Assembly: GCA_965227605.1 (NCBI GenBank)
Contig: OZ245745.1
Coordinates: 945,694-1,009,693, forward strand
DNA: 64,000 bases
Source: Phycisphaerales bacterium
GTDB lineage: Bacteria > Planctomycetota > Phycisphaerae > Phycisphaerales > UBA1924
Direction: 5' to 3'
Part shown: piece by piece, positions 38,385 through 51,825 of the stretch
How the letters are laid out: the number at the start of each line of letters is the position of its first letter
Position numbering within the stretch: position 1 is the first letter of the stretch
Program-made: the position numbers and the translations under genes
The notes under the pieces: generated by a model
The model's database searches: none
What the model was told of the DNA's origin: nothing
What the model saw: only the letters and a program-made list of their open reading frames with translations

Positions 38385-39218
38385 CTAGGCGCCCAGTTCT
38401 CGGCCTCGGTTGCGGGCGGCGGTGATGGCGTTGATCACGGCCTGCATGACGTTGTGGTCGTCGAGGGTGTTGGTCGCGGCGGCTGTTGTGCCGCCCTTGC
38501 TGGTGACGGCGGAGCGGAGGTCGGCGGGCGCTGTCTCGCGCTGGTTCTCAAGGAGGGCGGCGGCGCCGGTGATGACGGCGCGGACGGTTCGGTCGGCGTC
38601 GTTGGGGTCGATGCCGACTTCGATAGCGGCTTTGGTCATGGCCTCGGCGAGGTAGAAGAGGTAGGCGGGGCCGGAGCCGGCGACGGCGGTGAAGGCGTCG
38701 AAGAGTGATTCGTCGATGTCGATCACGTCGCTGACGGAAGTCATGAGGGCGCGGGCGAGGGCGTCGTCGCCTGGTTGCGCGCCGGCGCTCTGGGTGATGG
38801 CGCTGATTCCCTTGCCGATCTGGGCGGGGGTGTTGGGCATGACGCGGACGACGCGGGCCCAGTCGCCGAGGAGGCTGCGGACGCGTGCCCCTGTGGCGCC
38901 GGCGAGGATGCTAATGACGACGCGTGAGGATTCGCCCGCGGTGCGGGCGACGTCGGGCGCGGCTTCGGGGAGGATCTGGGGTTTGACGGCGAGGAGGATC
39001 TGGGTGTTTTCGCTGATGTGAGAGGCGAGGTCGGTGAAGCTGGGGGCGGTGTGGACGCCGGCTTTTGTGAAGACGGTTCGCTTGACCTCGTCGGGGTCGG
39101 CGACGACGATGTTTTGGCTCTCGATCGCCCCGGCGCGGATGGCGGCGAGGAGGATGGCTTGTGCCATGTTCCCGGCGGCGAGGACGGCGAGCTTCGCTGG
39201 CGTTTCGGCGTTGCTCAT
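38385..39218 (-). CDS. proC: Pyrroline-5-carboxylate reductase
   Basis: N-terminal Rossmann KLAVLAAGNMAQAIL and the ProC C-terminal dimerisation domain (GSGPAYLFYLAEAM). Only the last 278 codons of ORF 38385..40862 are real. Confidence 0.85.
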   Translation of the reverse strand: MSNAETPAKLAVLAAGNMAQAILLAAIRAGAIESQNIVVADPDEVKRTVFTKAGVHTAPSFTDLASHISENTQILLAVKPQILPEAAPDVARTAGESSRVVISILAGATGARVRSLLGDWARVVRVMPNTPAQIGKGISAITQSAGAQPGDDALARALMTSVSDVIDIDESLFDAFTAVAGSGPAYLFYLAEAMTKAAIEVGIDPNDADRTVRAVITGAAALLENQRETAPADLRSAVTSKGGTTAAATNTLDDHNVMQAVINAITAARNRGRELGA

Positions 39219-39229
39219 GAAAGGCTCCA

Positions 39230-40099
39230 GTGACCGACGGCGCAGCGGCAGAGATCGAAGAGACGGCGGAAAGCGCCCCGGTTTCGCGCGATCCGTGGGA
39301 GGTGGTGAAGATCGCGCGGCACCCGGAGCGGCCGCAGACGAGAGACTACATCGACCTGATCTTCCGTGATTTTTGCGAGCTGCACGGGGACCGTCGGTTC
39401 GGCGACGATCACGCGATCGTGTGCGGGTTTGCGCGGCTTCGTTCGATGAAGGTGATGCTGATCGGCCAGCACAAGGGGCGCGACACGAAGGAGCGGATCG
39501 CGTGCAACTTCGGGTGCGCGCACCCGGAGGGGTATCGCAAGGCGCTGGCGAAGATGCGTCTGGCGGAGAAGTACGGCGTGCCGATCGTGACGCTGGTGGA
39601 TACACCCGGCGCGTACCCGGGGCTGGGCGCGGAGCAGCGGGGGCAGGCGGAGGCGATCGCGGTGAACCTGCGTGAGATGTCGCGCTTGAAGACGCCGATC
39701 GTGAGTGTGGTGATCGGGGAGGGGGGCTCGGGTGGGGCGCTGGGGATCGCGGTGGCGGATCGCGTGGCGATGATGGAGAACTCGTGGTACTCGGTGATCT
39801 CGCCTGAGGGGTGCGCGGCGATCCTTTGGAAAGTGGCGAACGAGGAAACGAACACCGCGGCGGCGACGGCGCTGAACCTGCGGGCCGAGGACAACCTGAA
39901 GCACGGGATTGTCGATGATGTGATTGAGGAGCCCGAGGGCGGGGCGCACACGGATCACAAGGCGGCGGCGGAGAATCTGGAGAAGTGGCTGGTGGATCGG
40001 GTGCGCCGGCTGCAGCGGACGAAGCGGGAGACGCTGCCGGAGCGGCGTTACAAGCGGTTCCGGGGGTTGGGCTCGTACGCGGAAGCGCCTTCGGAGTAA
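39230..40099 (+). CDS. accA: Acetyl-CoA carboxylase carboxyltransferase subunit alpha
   Basis: [27 protein letters not shown] ... [23 protein letters not shown] ... GEGGSGGAL aligns with AccA throughout. GTG start only 11 nt from the divergent proC start. Confidence 0.85.
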
Positions 40100-40215
40100 G
40101 CGTTTCGGGCTTGCGGGCGGGGCTGGGTGGGAGTACAGTTCTCGGCCCTTGCCGCCCGGCGCGTGTGTCGTGATTGGGCGTATTTCGTGCTGTGGCAAGG
40201 CCTTGGAGGCCGTTC

Positions 40216-41094
40216 GTGGCCAAGCGCAAGACCACTTCGAAGAAGAAGACGGCGAAAAAGCCCGCAGGCAAAAAGGCGCCTGCGCGGAAGAAGAGCGCGT
40301 CCAAGAAGAAGACGACCAAGAAGGTCGCGACCAAGAAGGTCGCGAGCAAGAAGACCGGCGCGAAGAAATCGACGAGCCGGAAAAAGGCTGCTTCCAAGAA
40401 AGCGCCTGCGAAGAAGAAGGCAGCTTCGAAGAAGAAGGCTTCGACGACGAAGCGTACGACTACCAAGAAGAGCGCGAAGAAGCCGAGTTCGAAGAAAACG
40501 ACCAGCAAGAAATCACCTGCCAAGAAGACCAGTGCTGCTGGGAAGAAGGCGCCGGCGAAGAAGGGCGGCGCGTCGTCCAAGAAGGCTGATGACGCGAAGC
40601 TGAAAGAGGCACGGGCTGCGGCGTCACGGTTGGCGGCGCTGGCGGGGCTGCCTTCCGTGCAGTCGAACCAGATGGCCGAGCCTGCGGCGGAGAAGAAGAA
40701 GCGTCGTTTAACGAAATCGCCTCTCACGGCGGCGGCGCTGGAGAAGTTCCGCGAGCTGCTGCTTGAGAAGCGGCGCGAGGTGGCGGGGGACGTTTCGGCG
40801 ATCGAGGGCGAGGCGCTGAACCCGTCGCGCTCGGGGTCGCTTTCGTCGCTGCCGCAGCACATGGCGGATCAGGGGTCGGACGAGTTCGAGCAGACGCTGT
40901 CGCTCGGGATCGCGGCGACGCAGCGGAAGCTGCTGATTGAGATTGAGGCGGCGCTCGACCGGATTGATAACGGGGTCTATGGGATCTGCGAGATGACGGG
41001 GCGGGCGATCGCGAAGGCGCGGCTGGAGGCGACGCCGTGGTGTCGGTACAGCCTCGAGGGCGCGCAGATGGCGGACCGCGGGCTGACCCCGTGA
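40216..41094 (+). CDS. Fusion protein: histone-H1-like Lys/Ala-rich N-terminal domain + DksA/TraR-family C-terminal domain (degenerate 2-Cys zinc finger)
   Basis: ~130 aa of KKxxxKK repeats ([25 protein letters not shown]...). Then a coiled coil and [30 protein letters not shown], which resembles the DksA/TraR C4 finger with two Cys replaced. Probable GTG start at 40216, preceded by GGAGG. Confidence 0.65.
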
Positions 41095-41744
41095 GCGAGA
41101 CGGCGGCGGGACCGTCCCCGGCGCGGAGCGCGGGCGCGTGGGCCACGCTGCTCGGGGTGACGCTCTTCGGCGCGCTGATTGATCTGTTCAGTAAGTCGCT
41201 CGCGTTTGCGAGGATCGCGGACGCGCCGGTGCTGGTGTCGCGGGAGGCGGTGCTGGCGCACCCGCCCGAGCAGCTGAACGCGGCGCTGATCCCGGCGCAT
41301 GAGCCGGTGATGGTGATCCCGTATGTGCTCGAGTTTCGGTTGGTGCTGAACCCGGGCGCCGTGTTCGGGGTTGGCCCAGGGAAGCGGTGGTTCTTTGTGG
41401 GGTTCACGCTGCTGGCGGTGTGCGCGGCGCTGTGGATGTTCGCGAAGTGGACGACGGCGAAGGATCGGTGGTCGCACGCGGCGCTGGGGCTGGTTCTGGC
41501 GGGCGGCTTGGGGAACCTGTACGACCGGCTGGTGCACGGGTGCGTGCGGGATTTTCTGCACCCGCTGCCGAATGTTCAGTTGCCCTTCGGGATCACGTGG
41601 CCCGGCGGGGAGACTGAGGTGTGGCCGTGGGTGAGCAACGTGGCCGACGCGTGGCTTTTGATTGGGATCGGTATTTTGTTGGTGCGGGCGTGGGGCGGGG
41701 AGAAGAACGGCGGAGGTCAGCCCGCTGCAGAGGCGTCGGCCTGA
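41091..41744 (+). CDS. lspA: Lipoprotein signal peptidase (signal peptidase II)
   Basis: LspA motifs NPGAVFGVG, LGNLYDRL and VRDFLH. The GTG start overlaps the upstream stop (GTGA). Confidence 0.8.
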   Translation: MSETAAGPSPARSAGAWATLLGVTLFGALIDLFSKSLAFARIADAPVLVSREAVLAHPPEQLNAALIPAHEPVMVIPYVLEFRLVLNPGAVFGVGPGKRWFFVGFTLLAVCAALWMFAKWTTAKDRWSHAALGLVLAGGLGNLYDRLVHGCVRDFLHPLPNVQLPFGITWPGGETEVWPWVSNVADAWLLIGIGILLVRAWGGEKNGGGQPAAEASA

Positions 41745-42703
41745 GAGCGGATGCGTTCCCTGAGGGTGTCGAGCATGTCTCGGACCTCGGTGGCCATCCG
41801 CGAGTTGGGGAAGGCGTCGATGATCTGCTCGCCGACCTGGAGCGCTTCGCCCCAGGATTTGTCCTGCACGAGGAGCTTGAAGCGGACGCCGAGGTTGTCG
41901 CGGGCCTTTCCGATGACGCCGCGGGCGACCTCCTGGAACTGGGCGGCCTCGTCCTCGTCCAGGTAGTGGTCGAGTTCCTTGAGGAGGGTCATGGCCTGCT
42001 CGGTGTCTTCGCGCTGGGCGGCGTGGAGGAAGCGGCGCTCGAGATCGAGCTTGTAGCGGTTGTGGGCCTGATCGACTTTCTGGCGCAGGTTCTCGGTGCG
42101 GGGTGAGTCGGGGAAGAGGCGCTGGATGCGGGCGGCTTCCTCGGTGGCGGCGACCCACTCCTTGGATTCGATCTTGGATTCGAGGATGGAGAGGGCTTTG
42201 GAGACGCCTTCTTCGTAGGTCTCGGCGCGCCCGCGGTCGATGCGGACGCGGAACTCTTCGGCTTCCTGGCGGTAGCCGAAGCGCTCGGCGAGTTCCTTGA
42301 CGAGGATCATCGCGGCTTCCCAGTCGTGGTCGATGATGTCCTGCTCGATGGCCTTGCAGAGGAGGTCGCGTTCCTGCTTGCGGTGGATGACGCGCTTGGC
42401 GGCTTCGGAGAGGCCGCCCTCGTTGACCATCTCGTGGATGGCCTCGCTCATCTCGTGGACCTGGTCGGCGAGGTCGACCATGGAGCCGTCGTTCCCATCG
42501 GAGGTTCGCAGGCCGATGGGGGCGAGGGCGAGCGAGACGATGAGGCCGAGGAAGGCTTCGCCCCGGAACTGGGGGAGCATGACCATGACGACGAGGCAGC
42601 CGGCGACGAGGAGCAGGTAGAAGACGAGGAACTCCCAAGCCGGGGGCTGGATGCCGCCCTTGGTCGGGCGGGTGGTCTGGCGTCGGTCCAGGGTGTCGTT
42701 CAT
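41717..42703 (-). CDS. Hypothetical membrane protein with helical-repeat cytoplasmic domain
   Basis: One or two N-terminal TM helices (AWEFLVFYLLLVAGCLVVMVMLP), followed by an alpha-helical repeat region. No catalytic motif. Confidence 0.45.
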   Translation of the reverse strand: MNDTLDRRQTTRPTKGGIQPPAWEFLVFYLLLVAGCLVVMVMLPQFRGEAFLGLIVSLALAPIGLRTSDGNDGSMVDLADQVHEMSEAIHEMVNEGGLSEAAKRVIHRKQERDLLCKAIEQDIIDHDWEAAMILVKELAERFGYRQEAEEFRVRIDRGRAETYEEGVSKALSILESKIESKEWVAATEEAARIQRLFPDSPRTENLRQKVDQAHNRYKLDLERRFLHAAQREDTEQAMTLLKELDHYLDEDEAAQFQEVARGVIGKARDNLGVRFKLLVQDKSWGEALQVGEQIIDAFPNSRMATEVRDMLDTLRERIRSQADASAAG

Positions 42704-42744
42704 CGCCTGCTCCGTCGTGGCGGTTGGGGGAGGTTCTTGCCCCA

Positions 42745-43110
42745 TCATGTGCCGGGGGTGGGCTCTCCGCAATTGCGGCTGACCGGGGCGACGCAGAGGA
42801 AGCGGAGGCCCTGGCTCCCGGCCTGGAACTGGTGCTCGGCGTCCGCGGGGACGTAGAGGACGTCTCCGGGCCTGACGGGGTGGTCGCTGCCGCTGAGGTG
42901 GGCCTCGCCTGAGCCGTCCAGGATGAAGACCTCGTGCTCGTAGTCGTGGGAGTGGCGGGGGGTGTGGCCGCCCGGGGCGACCTTGAACTGGCGGGTAGCG
43001 AAGGTGGGGGCGCCGTCGTCGCGCCCGGCCATGACGCGCATGGCGACGCCCTCAGCGCCGTCCATGTCGACGGGGGTCATCTCCACGTCGTCGATGTTGC
43101 GGATAACCAT
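42745..43110 (-). CDS. Cupin domain protein
   Basis: 121 aa. Cupin motifs G(x)5HxH (PGGHTPRHSHDYEHEVFILDG) and PGDVLYVPADAEHQF. Confidence 0.7.
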   Translation of the reverse strand: MVIRNIDDVEMTPVDMDGAEGVAMRVMAGRDDGAPTFATRQFKVAPGGHTPRHSHDYEHEVFILDGSGEAHLSGSDHPVRPGDVLYVPADAEHQFQAGSQGLRFLCVAPVSRNCGEPTPGT

Positions 43111-51294: not shown

Positions 51295-51825
51295 TCAACG
51301 CGGTTTTTTGCGTGAGACAGCCTTCTTCTTTGTGGTTTTCTTCTTCGTGGTCGCCTTCTTCCGCGCCGGGCGCGGGGCTTCGAGCGAGCTCTCGTACGCC
51401 TTGATGAATTTCTTGACGGTCATCCGCTTGACGGTTTTGGCGATGACGTCGAGCGGGACGTCTTCCAGCTTCTTGAAGCGGACGCAGCTTTTGCCCATGT
51501 CGAGCTTGTGGCCGGTGTTCTTCCACGCCTCCTGGAAGCGTTCGACCTCGCCCTCGTCGCAGTAGAGGCAGAAGAGGTAGAGGGCCATGTGGTTCTTCTG
51601 GCTGGCGAGGCTGAGGAAGGGGAGGGGCTGTTTGGGGTTGCAGTGGTAGCCGGCGGGGTAGACGGAGTGGGGGATGGCGTAGCCGATCATGCCGTACTGG
51701 ATGACCTCCCTGACCTGGGGGTCGAGGTTGTCCTTGATGGCCTTGCGGATGGCTTTGATGGCTTTGCGGCGGTCGTCTGGGAGCTCTTTGAGGTACTCGC
51801 TGACGGTGGGGGCGGCGCTTTGCAT
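51295..51825 (-). CDS. DUF1801 (YdhG-like) domain protein with Lys-rich C-terminal tail
   Basis: YdhG/DUF1801-like core (QYGMIGYAIPHSVYPAGYHCNPKQPLPFLSLASQKNHMALYL). C-terminal KKATTKKKTTKKKAVSRKKPR. Confidence 0.55.
   Translation of the reverse strand: MQSAAPTVSEYLKELPDDRRKAIKAIRKAIKDNLDPQVREVIQYGMIGYAIPHSVYPAGYHCNPKQPLPFLSLASQKNHMALYLFCLYCDEGEVERFQEAWKNTGHKLDMGKSCVRFKKLEDVPLDVIAKTVKRMTVKKFIKAYESSLEAPRPARKKATTKKKTTKKKAVSRKKPR

Follow-up and report, generated by a model that had tools for sequence, protein, structure and literature searches.

The 64-kb stretch of DNA analyzed here (64,000 nucleotides of contig OZ245745.1 from a Phycisphaerales bacterium of the phylum Planctomycetota, hereafter the window; 66% GC) carries on its plus strand, at 40216..41094 with the stop codon included, a gene for a 292-residue protein in which a long polycationic tail precedes a domain of the DksA family. 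We refer to it as a histone-tailed, DdbA-like DksA-family gene, after DdbA of Streptomyces coelicolor, and this assignment draws on a single open reading frame (ORF), on Pfam and NCBIfam matches, on a profile search of the PDB, and on an AlphaFold model compared with known structures by Foldseek. The gene is immediately followed by lspA, a candidate start of which overlaps its stop codon, and is preceded by accA.

The plus strand is open from a TTG at 40174 down to the TGA at 41092-41094, and one unbroken ORF from the GTG at 40216 to this stop covers both the tail and the DksA domain. The preliminary description, which had placed a lysine/alanine-rich tail and a DksA/TraR-type domain in one gene, is borne out by this ORF (40216-41094, 292 residues). 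A Shine-Dalgarno-like GGAGG, read in the sequence at 40205..40209 on the plus strand, lies 6 nt 5' of the GTG, the deposited NCBI/ENA protein (P0001) is the identical 292-residue product, and the N-terminus VAKRK is shared by L001 and L002, the nearest relatives, of which L001 is from an uncultured Phycisphaeraceae metagenome-assembled genome (90% identity). GTG 40216 is therefore the likely start, and the same three observations disfavor the upstream TTG.

The Polycationic Tail

Residues 1-123 (40216..40584, plus strand) form a polycationic tail rich in lysine, alanine, serine, and threonine, composed of some 22 short units, each ending in KK or KKK. With 49 lysines, 4 arginines, and no aspartate or glutamate, the tail has a net charge of +53 and an isoelectric point of 12.0, and, set against the mean lysine content of 3.2% in seven neighboring genes, such a composition has a probability of about 6e-40. 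Its lysine codons are AAG in 42 cases and AAA in 7, and in this frame the GC content at third codon positions (GC3) is 0.80, the kind of value that coding sequence should have when the genome is 66% GC; this indicates that the lysine-rich tract is read in the coding frame. The tail is predicted to be disordered; in the AlphaFold model it is without secondary structure, and residues 1-120 have predicted local distance difference test (pLDDT) values of about 47-59.

Within the tail lies a 15-nt (pentapeptide) tandem repeat of 4.5 copies (40288..40354, plus strand; Tandem Repeats Finder, 80% matches), which fits growth by repeat slippage. Compared with L001, the tail is 53% identical, with insertions and deletions, and the remainder of the protein is 86% identical; between relatives, the composition of the tail is kept while its sequence and length drift. 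The Pfam HC2 profile (PF07382) matches the tail with 30.6 bits, below the cut-off of 40, and the Burkholderia H1-like profile NF038053 with 33.3 against a cut-off of 80, and the "H1-like" nature of the tail is a resemblance in composition. The lysine-rich basic tract of the preliminary description, given there as about 130 residues of AlgP/H1-like sequence, is thus present as residues 1-123, whereas its likeness to H1 is compositional, the HC2 match being below cut-off.

Elsewhere in the window, a 176-residue protein with a DUF1801 domain (51295-51825, minus strand; Pfam E 2.8e-14) ends in a short lysine-rich C-terminal tail (...RKKATTKKKTTKKKAVSRKKPR), which is the sole other lysine-dense tract in the 64 kb. 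The presence of a tail on this protein suggests that appended polycationic tails may be a recurrent, and possibly general, device in the source genome.

The DksA-Family Domain

The C-terminal 125-130 residues make up a DksA/TraR-family domain of the zinc-independent type known as C1, as judged from sequence profiles and predicted structure. Pfam zf-dskA_traR (PF01258) matches residues 254-281 with 27.6 bits, above its cut-off of 24.9, and Pfam DksA_N (PF21157) matches residues 175-250 with 19.6 bits, below its cut-off of 27. NCBIfam returns yteA (E 4e-20), DksA_like (2e-14), and dksA (2e-13), all of them far below the equivalog cut-offs. A profile of 41 family members searched against the PDB retrieves DksA of Chlamydia trachomatis (6ptg, E 1.9e-26), DksA2 of Pseudomonas aeruginosa (4ijj, 5e-20), DksA of Escherichia coli (1tjl, 1e-17), and an Agrobacterium tumefaciens protein (2kq9, 8.5e-15), with TraR retrieved weakly, and the matches to DksA chains span the whole domain.

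The AlphaFold2 model, built from a 53-sequence alignment, consists of a disordered region (residues 1-120), a helix (122-142), a confidently predicted coiled coil, and a small C-terminal globule. The pair of helices forming this coiled coil, residues 172-201 and 219-252 (40729..40971, plus strand), have pLDDT values mostly above 90, overlap the DksA_N match at 175-250, and can be aligned to the coiled coils in 6ptg, 4ijj, and 1tjl. When the model is compared with the PDB by Foldseek, the best eight matches are all DksA, including the RNA polymerase (RNAP)-bound structures 7khi and 5vsw, and the top match is 4ijj, with a template-modeling score (TM) of 0.76 and a root-mean-square deviation of 2.5 A. 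The similarity of the C-terminal region to DksA/TraR that had been proposed earlier is thus confirmed both by the PDB profile (E 1.9e-26 to 1e-17) and by Foldseek.

The coiled-coil tip, residues 213-222 (40852..40881, plus strand), is the site of a motif recognized by its conservation in 53 family members, in which H215, A217, D218, G220, and D222 are each at least 90% conserved and the sequence HMADxG(S/T)D is nearly invariant. A phmmer alignment with 1tjl, which contains a one-residue insertion, equates D218 with D74 of E. coli DksA, G220 with A76, and Q214 with D71.

The finger of this domain is a degenerate version of the C1-type DksA/TraR finger, C258-E-M-T-x17-S279-L-E-G282 (40987..41061, plus strand), identified by Pfam and by alignment with four-cysteine planctomycete relatives. 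Those distant relatives, of 124-136 residues, carry the full CxxC-x17-CxxC motif, and comparison with them shows that three of the four canonical ligands have been lost (the second cysteine to threonine, the third to serine, and the fourth to glycine), while the first cysteine survives and is invariant in the family. The finger therefore corresponds to the C1 variant, except that its last position is glycine rather than alanine. The preliminary description had counted two replaced cysteines, taking CEMT...CRYS as the site; however, the x17 spacing and the family alignment identify S279-L-E-G282 as the second half-site and rule out the two-cysteine version, so that three cysteines are lost and the cysteine of CRYS, Cys276, is off-register.

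Cys276 itself (41041-41043) precedes the lost third ligand position by three residues, at a site occupied by alanine in most relatives, and recurs only in the closest relatives P0002, L001, and L002. Together with Cys258, it might form a redox-sensitive pair.

The C1 motif class was defined in work on the DksA of C. trachomatis, which belongs to it and binds no metal (PMC9126822). Zinc-free DksA proteins of the C1 and C2 types from Rhodobacter and P. aeruginosa work on RNAP (reviewed in PMC9126822).

Distribution Among Planctomycetota

When one genome from each GTDB species was scanned with patterns derived from an 8-sequence alignment, 80 loci were obtained. The patterns are clade-specific, and the scan speaks to Phycisphaerae rather than to distribution beyond this class; every taxon-named locus is from Planctomycetota, mostly from Phycisphaerales/Phycisphaeraceae. 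In 75 of the 80 loci, lspA is located immediately 3' of the DksA-like gene, and in about 70 accA is found upstream. All 77 loci with complete upstream sequence (uncut loci) carry an in-frame lysine-rich tract of 68-245 residues (median 143), with no stop between tract and domain. The lysine-rich extension whose presence in relatives had been left to be checked is therefore in frame, and free of frameshifts, in 77/77 of these loci, and this, together with GC3, rules out the possibility that the tract and the finger region are separate genes created by a frameshift.

Searching 1.84 billion cluster representatives (50% identity) with a profile gave 1,142 clusters at E <= 1e-30. From these, the 137 cluster representatives assessed are the listed best matches in which the tip motif could be located, and a representative was counted as tailed if it had an N-terminal extension of at least 40 residues with at least 15% lysine. 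By this definition, 117/137 of the closest assessed representatives are tailed, and none of the 137 is of the four-cysteine type. A histone-tailed DksA is thus the norm for Phycisphaerales and not peculiar to the source genome, and our literature searches turned up no description of a tailed DksA in Planctomycetota.

More distant relatives bear on the order of events. The tail-less four-cysteine proteins P0062 and P0064 (124-125 residues) have lspA directly 3', as does P0052, a 232-residue protein of the C2 type with an arginine/lysine-rich extension from another Phycisphaerae lineage. Because tail-less four-cysteine planctomycete relatives also adjoin lspA on its upstream side, the dksA-lspA linkage is ancestral, and the tail a lineage-specific addition.

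Many database homologues are annotated as proteins of 130-170 residues that start just past the tail (P0005, P0012, P0014, P0019, P0024, and others; P0005 at 165 residues and P0012 at 151). The locus of P0005 (L014) has a 154-residue lysine tract in frame, with no stop, and several of these short proteins are therefore start-site miscalls, given that the uncut loci show an in-frame tract. Gene callers seem to truncate the family at internal starts, perhaps owing to the atypical look of the low-GC lysine tract.

The tail and the DksA domain are joined in the window protein by a conserved helix (residues 122-142; 40579..40641, plus strand), predicted by AlphaFold with pLDDT values of 75-91. Its motif, [RK][LF]AAxAGL, is present in 38/80 loci, and a second Phycisphaerales subclade has RKPLIPSGP in place of it. 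Phycisphaerales thus have two mutually exclusive linker forms, the helix AAAx[RK]LAAxAGLxP[VI], as in the window, or GxxxRKPLIPSGP. MAFFT places the helix motif RLAALAGLP against the N-terminal SILAIAGVEPY of E. coli DksA, although we make no claim of homology from this placement. The conserved linker motif may be a docking peptide.

Linkage to lspA and Genomic Setting

The gene downstream, lspA, encodes lipoprotein signal peptidase II (41091..41744, plus strand, stop included; Pfam Peptidase_A8 E 4.6e-27, TIGR00077 E 6.5e-15). As stated in the preliminary description, the two genes overlap in a GTGA, which is read in the sequence at 41091..41094 on the plus strand, the GTG of lspA occupying 41091-41093 and the TGA of the DksA-like gene 41092-41094. 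An in-frame NTGA start with the same 4-nt overlap is present in 36/75 related loci, and in 22 more a start is within 30 nt; in several loci, the start at -4 is the only candidate 5' of the conserved LspA sequence. The DksA-like gene and lspA are very likely co-transcribed, and translational coupling of the two is plausible from their arrangement.

An alternative in-frame GTG for lspA, with a GGAGG, occurs at 41037 (GGAGG and GTG in 41024-41039), 54 nt 5' of the GTGA start, and many of the related loci show this kind of by-product start between -58 and -64. Because both elements are encoded, and thereby forced, by the codons for RLEAxPW, a conserved stretch of the DksA protein, they are taken to be incidental, and, as several relatives have the -4 start only, GTG 41037 is judged the less likely of the two, leaving the GTGA as the candidate true start. 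GTG 41037 could either give rise to an LspA isoform of greater length or have no role at all.

The arrangement of a DksA-type gene next to lspA had been described as a known one, and it is indeed found in 75/80 loci, in three distant planctomycete relatives, in C. trachomatis, and in S. coelicolor. In C. trachomatis, nrdR, dksA, and lspA are in one transcript (PMC9126822), and, in S. coelicolor, ddbA (SCO2075) and lsp (SCO2074) have adjacent gene numbers and are on the same cosmid (PMC3643593, PMC4941574).

Upstream of the DksA-like gene are accA on the plus strand and proC on the minus strand. The conserved neighbor accA, for the alpha subunit of the acetyl-CoA carboxylase carboxyltransferase, is at 39230..40099 (plus strand; Pfam ACCA E 2.7e-123). 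In the 116-nt gap between it and the DksA-like gene, no terminator-like site was found on the plus strand, and a scan for consensus promoters gave no match. Terminator-like matches on the minus strand at 40250-40525 were rejected as artifacts of CTTCTT runs, the reverse complement of lysine codons. Across the whole window, neither Rfam nor a tRNA scan gave a match.

An 825-residue open frame on the minus strand (38385-40862) comprises proC followed by the antisense of accA and of the lysine-rich tract, the latter reading as a phenylalanine/leucine-rich sequence from CTTCTT. Only the 3' part of this frame is a real gene by Pfam (proC, about 38385-39200); the remainder is a high-GC shadow ORF, which could mislead annotation. 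On the other side of the locus, a convergent gene for a 351-residue protein (41717-42772, minus strand) shares 28 nt with lspA at the 3' end of the latter. It has a weak YfiO/TPR-like Pfam match (E 1e-4) and keeps its position in about 25/80 related loci.

Comparison With Known Systems

The closest characterized architecture is that of DdbA (SCO2075), the "DksA-like DNA-binding protein" of S. coelicolor described in 2013 by Aldridge et al. (PMC3643593). DdbA binds and condenses DNA, its N-terminal H1-like domain alone shifts DNA in an electrophoretic mobility shift assay, the ddbA mutant is altered in nucleoid condensation and in supercoiling responses, and overexpression of DdbA suppresses a relA phenotype (PMC3643593). 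Its authors found orthologues in streptomycetes only, with a basic region of variable length, and proposed that it couples DNA conformation to RNAP regulation (PMC3643593). The window protein has the same domain order as DdbA, that is, an N-terminal basic H1-like region with lysine-rich pentapeptide repeats together with a DksA-like domain at the C-terminus, and in both cases the gene is next to that of the lipoprotein signal peptidase, by gene number in the case of ddbA and lsp.

There are also differences. DdbA has a four-cysteine zinc finger and both tip aspartates, whereas the window protein is of the C1 type with an equivalent of D74 only; the basic region is 93 residues long in DdbA and 123 in the window protein; and Streptomyces makes guanosine tetraphosphate (ppGpp), whereas the Planctomycetes-Verrucomicrobia-Chlamydiae (PVC) superphylum is reportedly without RelA/SpoT homologues. 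Furthermore, DdbA is actinobacterial, but the nearest tail-less, four-cysteine, lspA-linked relatives of the window protein are planctomycete, which points to independent fusion. Set apart from DdbA by the published description of that protein and not by a sequence comparison, the window protein is probably DdbA-like with a fusion of independent origin.

Among solved structures, the best sequence match is the DksA of C. trachomatis (6PTG), also from the PVC superphylum, which likewise keeps the first cysteine alone, has no zinc, bears an HxADQG(S/T)D tip, and is encoded directly 5' of lspA in one transcript. However, it has no lysine-rich tail, Hc1 and Hc2 being products of separate genes, and its upstream neighbor is nrdR rather than accA. 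The best structural match, DksA2 of P. aeruginosa (4IJJ), shares the DksA fold without a zinc finger, but is of the C2 type, has no basic tail, and exists alongside a canonical DksA as its zinc-starvation paralogue rather than as the sole lspA-linked copy. E. coli DksA (1TJL; RNAP complexes 5VSW and 7KHI) has the same fold and equivalents of D74 and L95, but it carries a four-cysteine zinc finger and no polycationic tail, and its R91, K98, and K139 are not kept in the window protein. The dksA gene of E. coli is not known to be linked to lspA.

As regards the tail, the C-terminal domain of H1, Hc2 (HctB), AlgP, and the tails of mycobacterial HupB and Streptomyces HupS are similar in being made of short lysine/alanine/proline/serine/threonine-rich repeats, in their strong positive charge, and in a length that varies with repeat copy number. 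Unlike the tail described here, they are stand-alone or fused to HU and are not joined to an RNAP-binding factor, and the likeness is compositional. CarD of Myxococcus xanthus binds the beta subunit of RNAP and not the secondary channel. Its RNAP-binding fold is unrelated to DksA, and its tail, of the AT-hook type, is at the C-terminus. It nevertheless follows the same design logic of joining an RNAP-binding module to a basic DNA-binding tail of eukaryotic appearance, here an RNAP-interacting CarD_TRCF domain and an HMGA-like tail (PMC2919716).

Proposed Mechanism and Alternatives

We consider it probable, though far from certain, that the protein is a two-part factor of the DdbA type, in which the DksA domain acts on the RNAP secondary channel, the polycationic tail binds DNA, and ppGpp is dispensable. 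By homology, the C-terminal domain would dock on the rim of the secondary channel with its coiled coil inserted towards the active site, and the tip HMADxG(S/T)D would take the role of the DxxDxA tip of E. coli DksA, D218 acting as D74. The disordered tail would bind DNA without sequence specificity and so keep the factor on the nucleoid, and it would probably contribute to DNA compaction. It could also contact DNA near the polymerase, because it exits the globular domain outside the secondary channel.

In this mechanism, no ppGpp cofactor would be needed. R91, K98, and K139 of E. coli DksA are reported by Ross et al. (2016) to form ppGpp site 2 with RNAP. In the phmmer alignment, they correspond to threonine, glutamate, and alanine in the window protein, respectively, while L95 is kept. 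In addition, a survey by Atkinson et al. reported RelA/SpoT homologues to be absent from all PVC genomes sampled (PMC3153485). The loss of the site-2 residues and this reported absence together suggest that the DksA-like factor probably acts without ppGpp.

Several observations weigh against the two-part factor. With respect to the domain, its scores fall short of the DksA equivalogs (TIGR02420, 50.8 vs. 115.5; NF033459, 53.8 vs. 105; NF008045, 26.7 vs. 289), and the first tip aspartate, D71 in E. coli, is not kept. With respect to ppGpp, the site-2 mapping relies on a single pairwise alignment of about 23% identity and is approximate, and the absence of RelA/SpoT from the PVC superphylum relies on one planctomycete genome surveyed in 2011 (PMC3153485). 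With respect to the tail, the matches to H1-like profiles are below cut-off and driven by composition, and lysine-rich tails can also bind RNA or polyphosphate. Finally, the C1-type DksA of C. trachomatis did not complement an E. coli dksA mutant (PMC9126822), so that secondary-channel activity in the PVC lineage is an assumption.

Some of these observations would suit a protein that is mainly structural, a nucleoid component and counterpart of chlamydial Hc1/Hc2, in which the DksA-like domain serves in dimerization, as a scaffold, or in some other role and no longer regulates RNAP. The length and basicity of the tail match those of dedicated histone-like proteins, to which the weak HC2 and Burkholderia H1-like matches may be added; the zinc site, D71, and the ppGpp site-2 residues are all lost; and the failure of the chlamydial C1-type protein in E. 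coli is in keeping with such a change of function. However, the DksA domain is far better kept than the tail (86% vs. 53% in the comparison with L001), the near-invariance of HMADxG(S/T)D in 53 members speaks for selection on what the tip does, and zinc-free C1 and C2 DksA proteins elsewhere function on RNAP (PMC9126822). We regard a mainly structural role as improbable.

It might alternatively be asked whether the target of the tail is a polyanion other than DNA, such as polyphosphate granules, RNA, or ribosomes, so that the DksA domain would be localized or sequestered according to energy or phosphate state. The composition of the tail is specific to no single polyanion, the unrelated DUF1801 protein in the window also ends in a lysine-rich tail, and AlgP, to which the preliminary description had compared the tail, has been linked to the spacing of polyphosphate granules in P. 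aeruginosa (PMC9239181). Against this, DNA is what DdbA binds and condenses in vitro, with an effect on the compaction of the nucleoid in vivo, and no polyphosphate genes adjoin the locus, and we would give this alternative little chance of being correct.

That the fusion is an artifact of annotation or assembly, the lysine tract being a separate histone-like gene or a noncoding repeat and the DksA protein starting internally, is highly improbable, since, even though homologues such as P0005 and P0012 are annotated short from just past the tail and the window protein has an internal methionine at residue 164, all 77 uncut loci, those of the "short" proteins included, read from tract to domain without a stop, in-frame GC3 is 0.80, the GTG at 40216 has both a GGAGG 6 nt before it and a VAKRK kept in L001 and L002 after it, and no comparable ribosome-binding site was noted 5' of the internal ATG.

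Concluding Remarks

For Streptomyces DdbA, the mechanistic idea of a secondary-channel factor tethered to DNA is already in print and has in part been tested (PMC3643593). What is new here is a planctomycete example and one of the zinc-free type, which extends the earlier work on DdbA: the combination of histone tail and DksA is not confined to one genus, and is how the lspA-linked DksA is normally built in an order of Planctomycetota, as seen in all 77 uncut species-level loci and in most of the closest metagenomic clusters. The protein is routinely annotated as a member of the TraR/DksA family. As a practical matter, it should be noted that many database entries of this family begin at internal starts and so miss the tail.

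A bolder proposal can be made, although we hold it to be rather unlikely as a whole. In Phycisphaerales, and probably in Phycisphaerae more widely, the lspA-linked DksA would have become zinc-free, ppGpp-independent, and histone-tailed independently of DdbA, with tethering to the nucleoid by a fast-evolving polycationic tail replacing, in a superphylum reported to be without RelA/SpoT, alarmone control of how much DksA reaches RNAP, and the protein would also be a major chromatin protein. If this were true, the solution would be a convergent one, and the protein would offer a tractable model of how chromosome compaction is coupled to regulation through the secondary channel.

Overall, it appears that in two distant phyla the same DksA paralogue, linked to lspA, has acquired a polycationic tail, which suggests a functional advantage of tethering this factor to DNA. 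The Phycisphaerales version would provide a natural experiment in which such a factor operates without zinc and probably without ppGpp.

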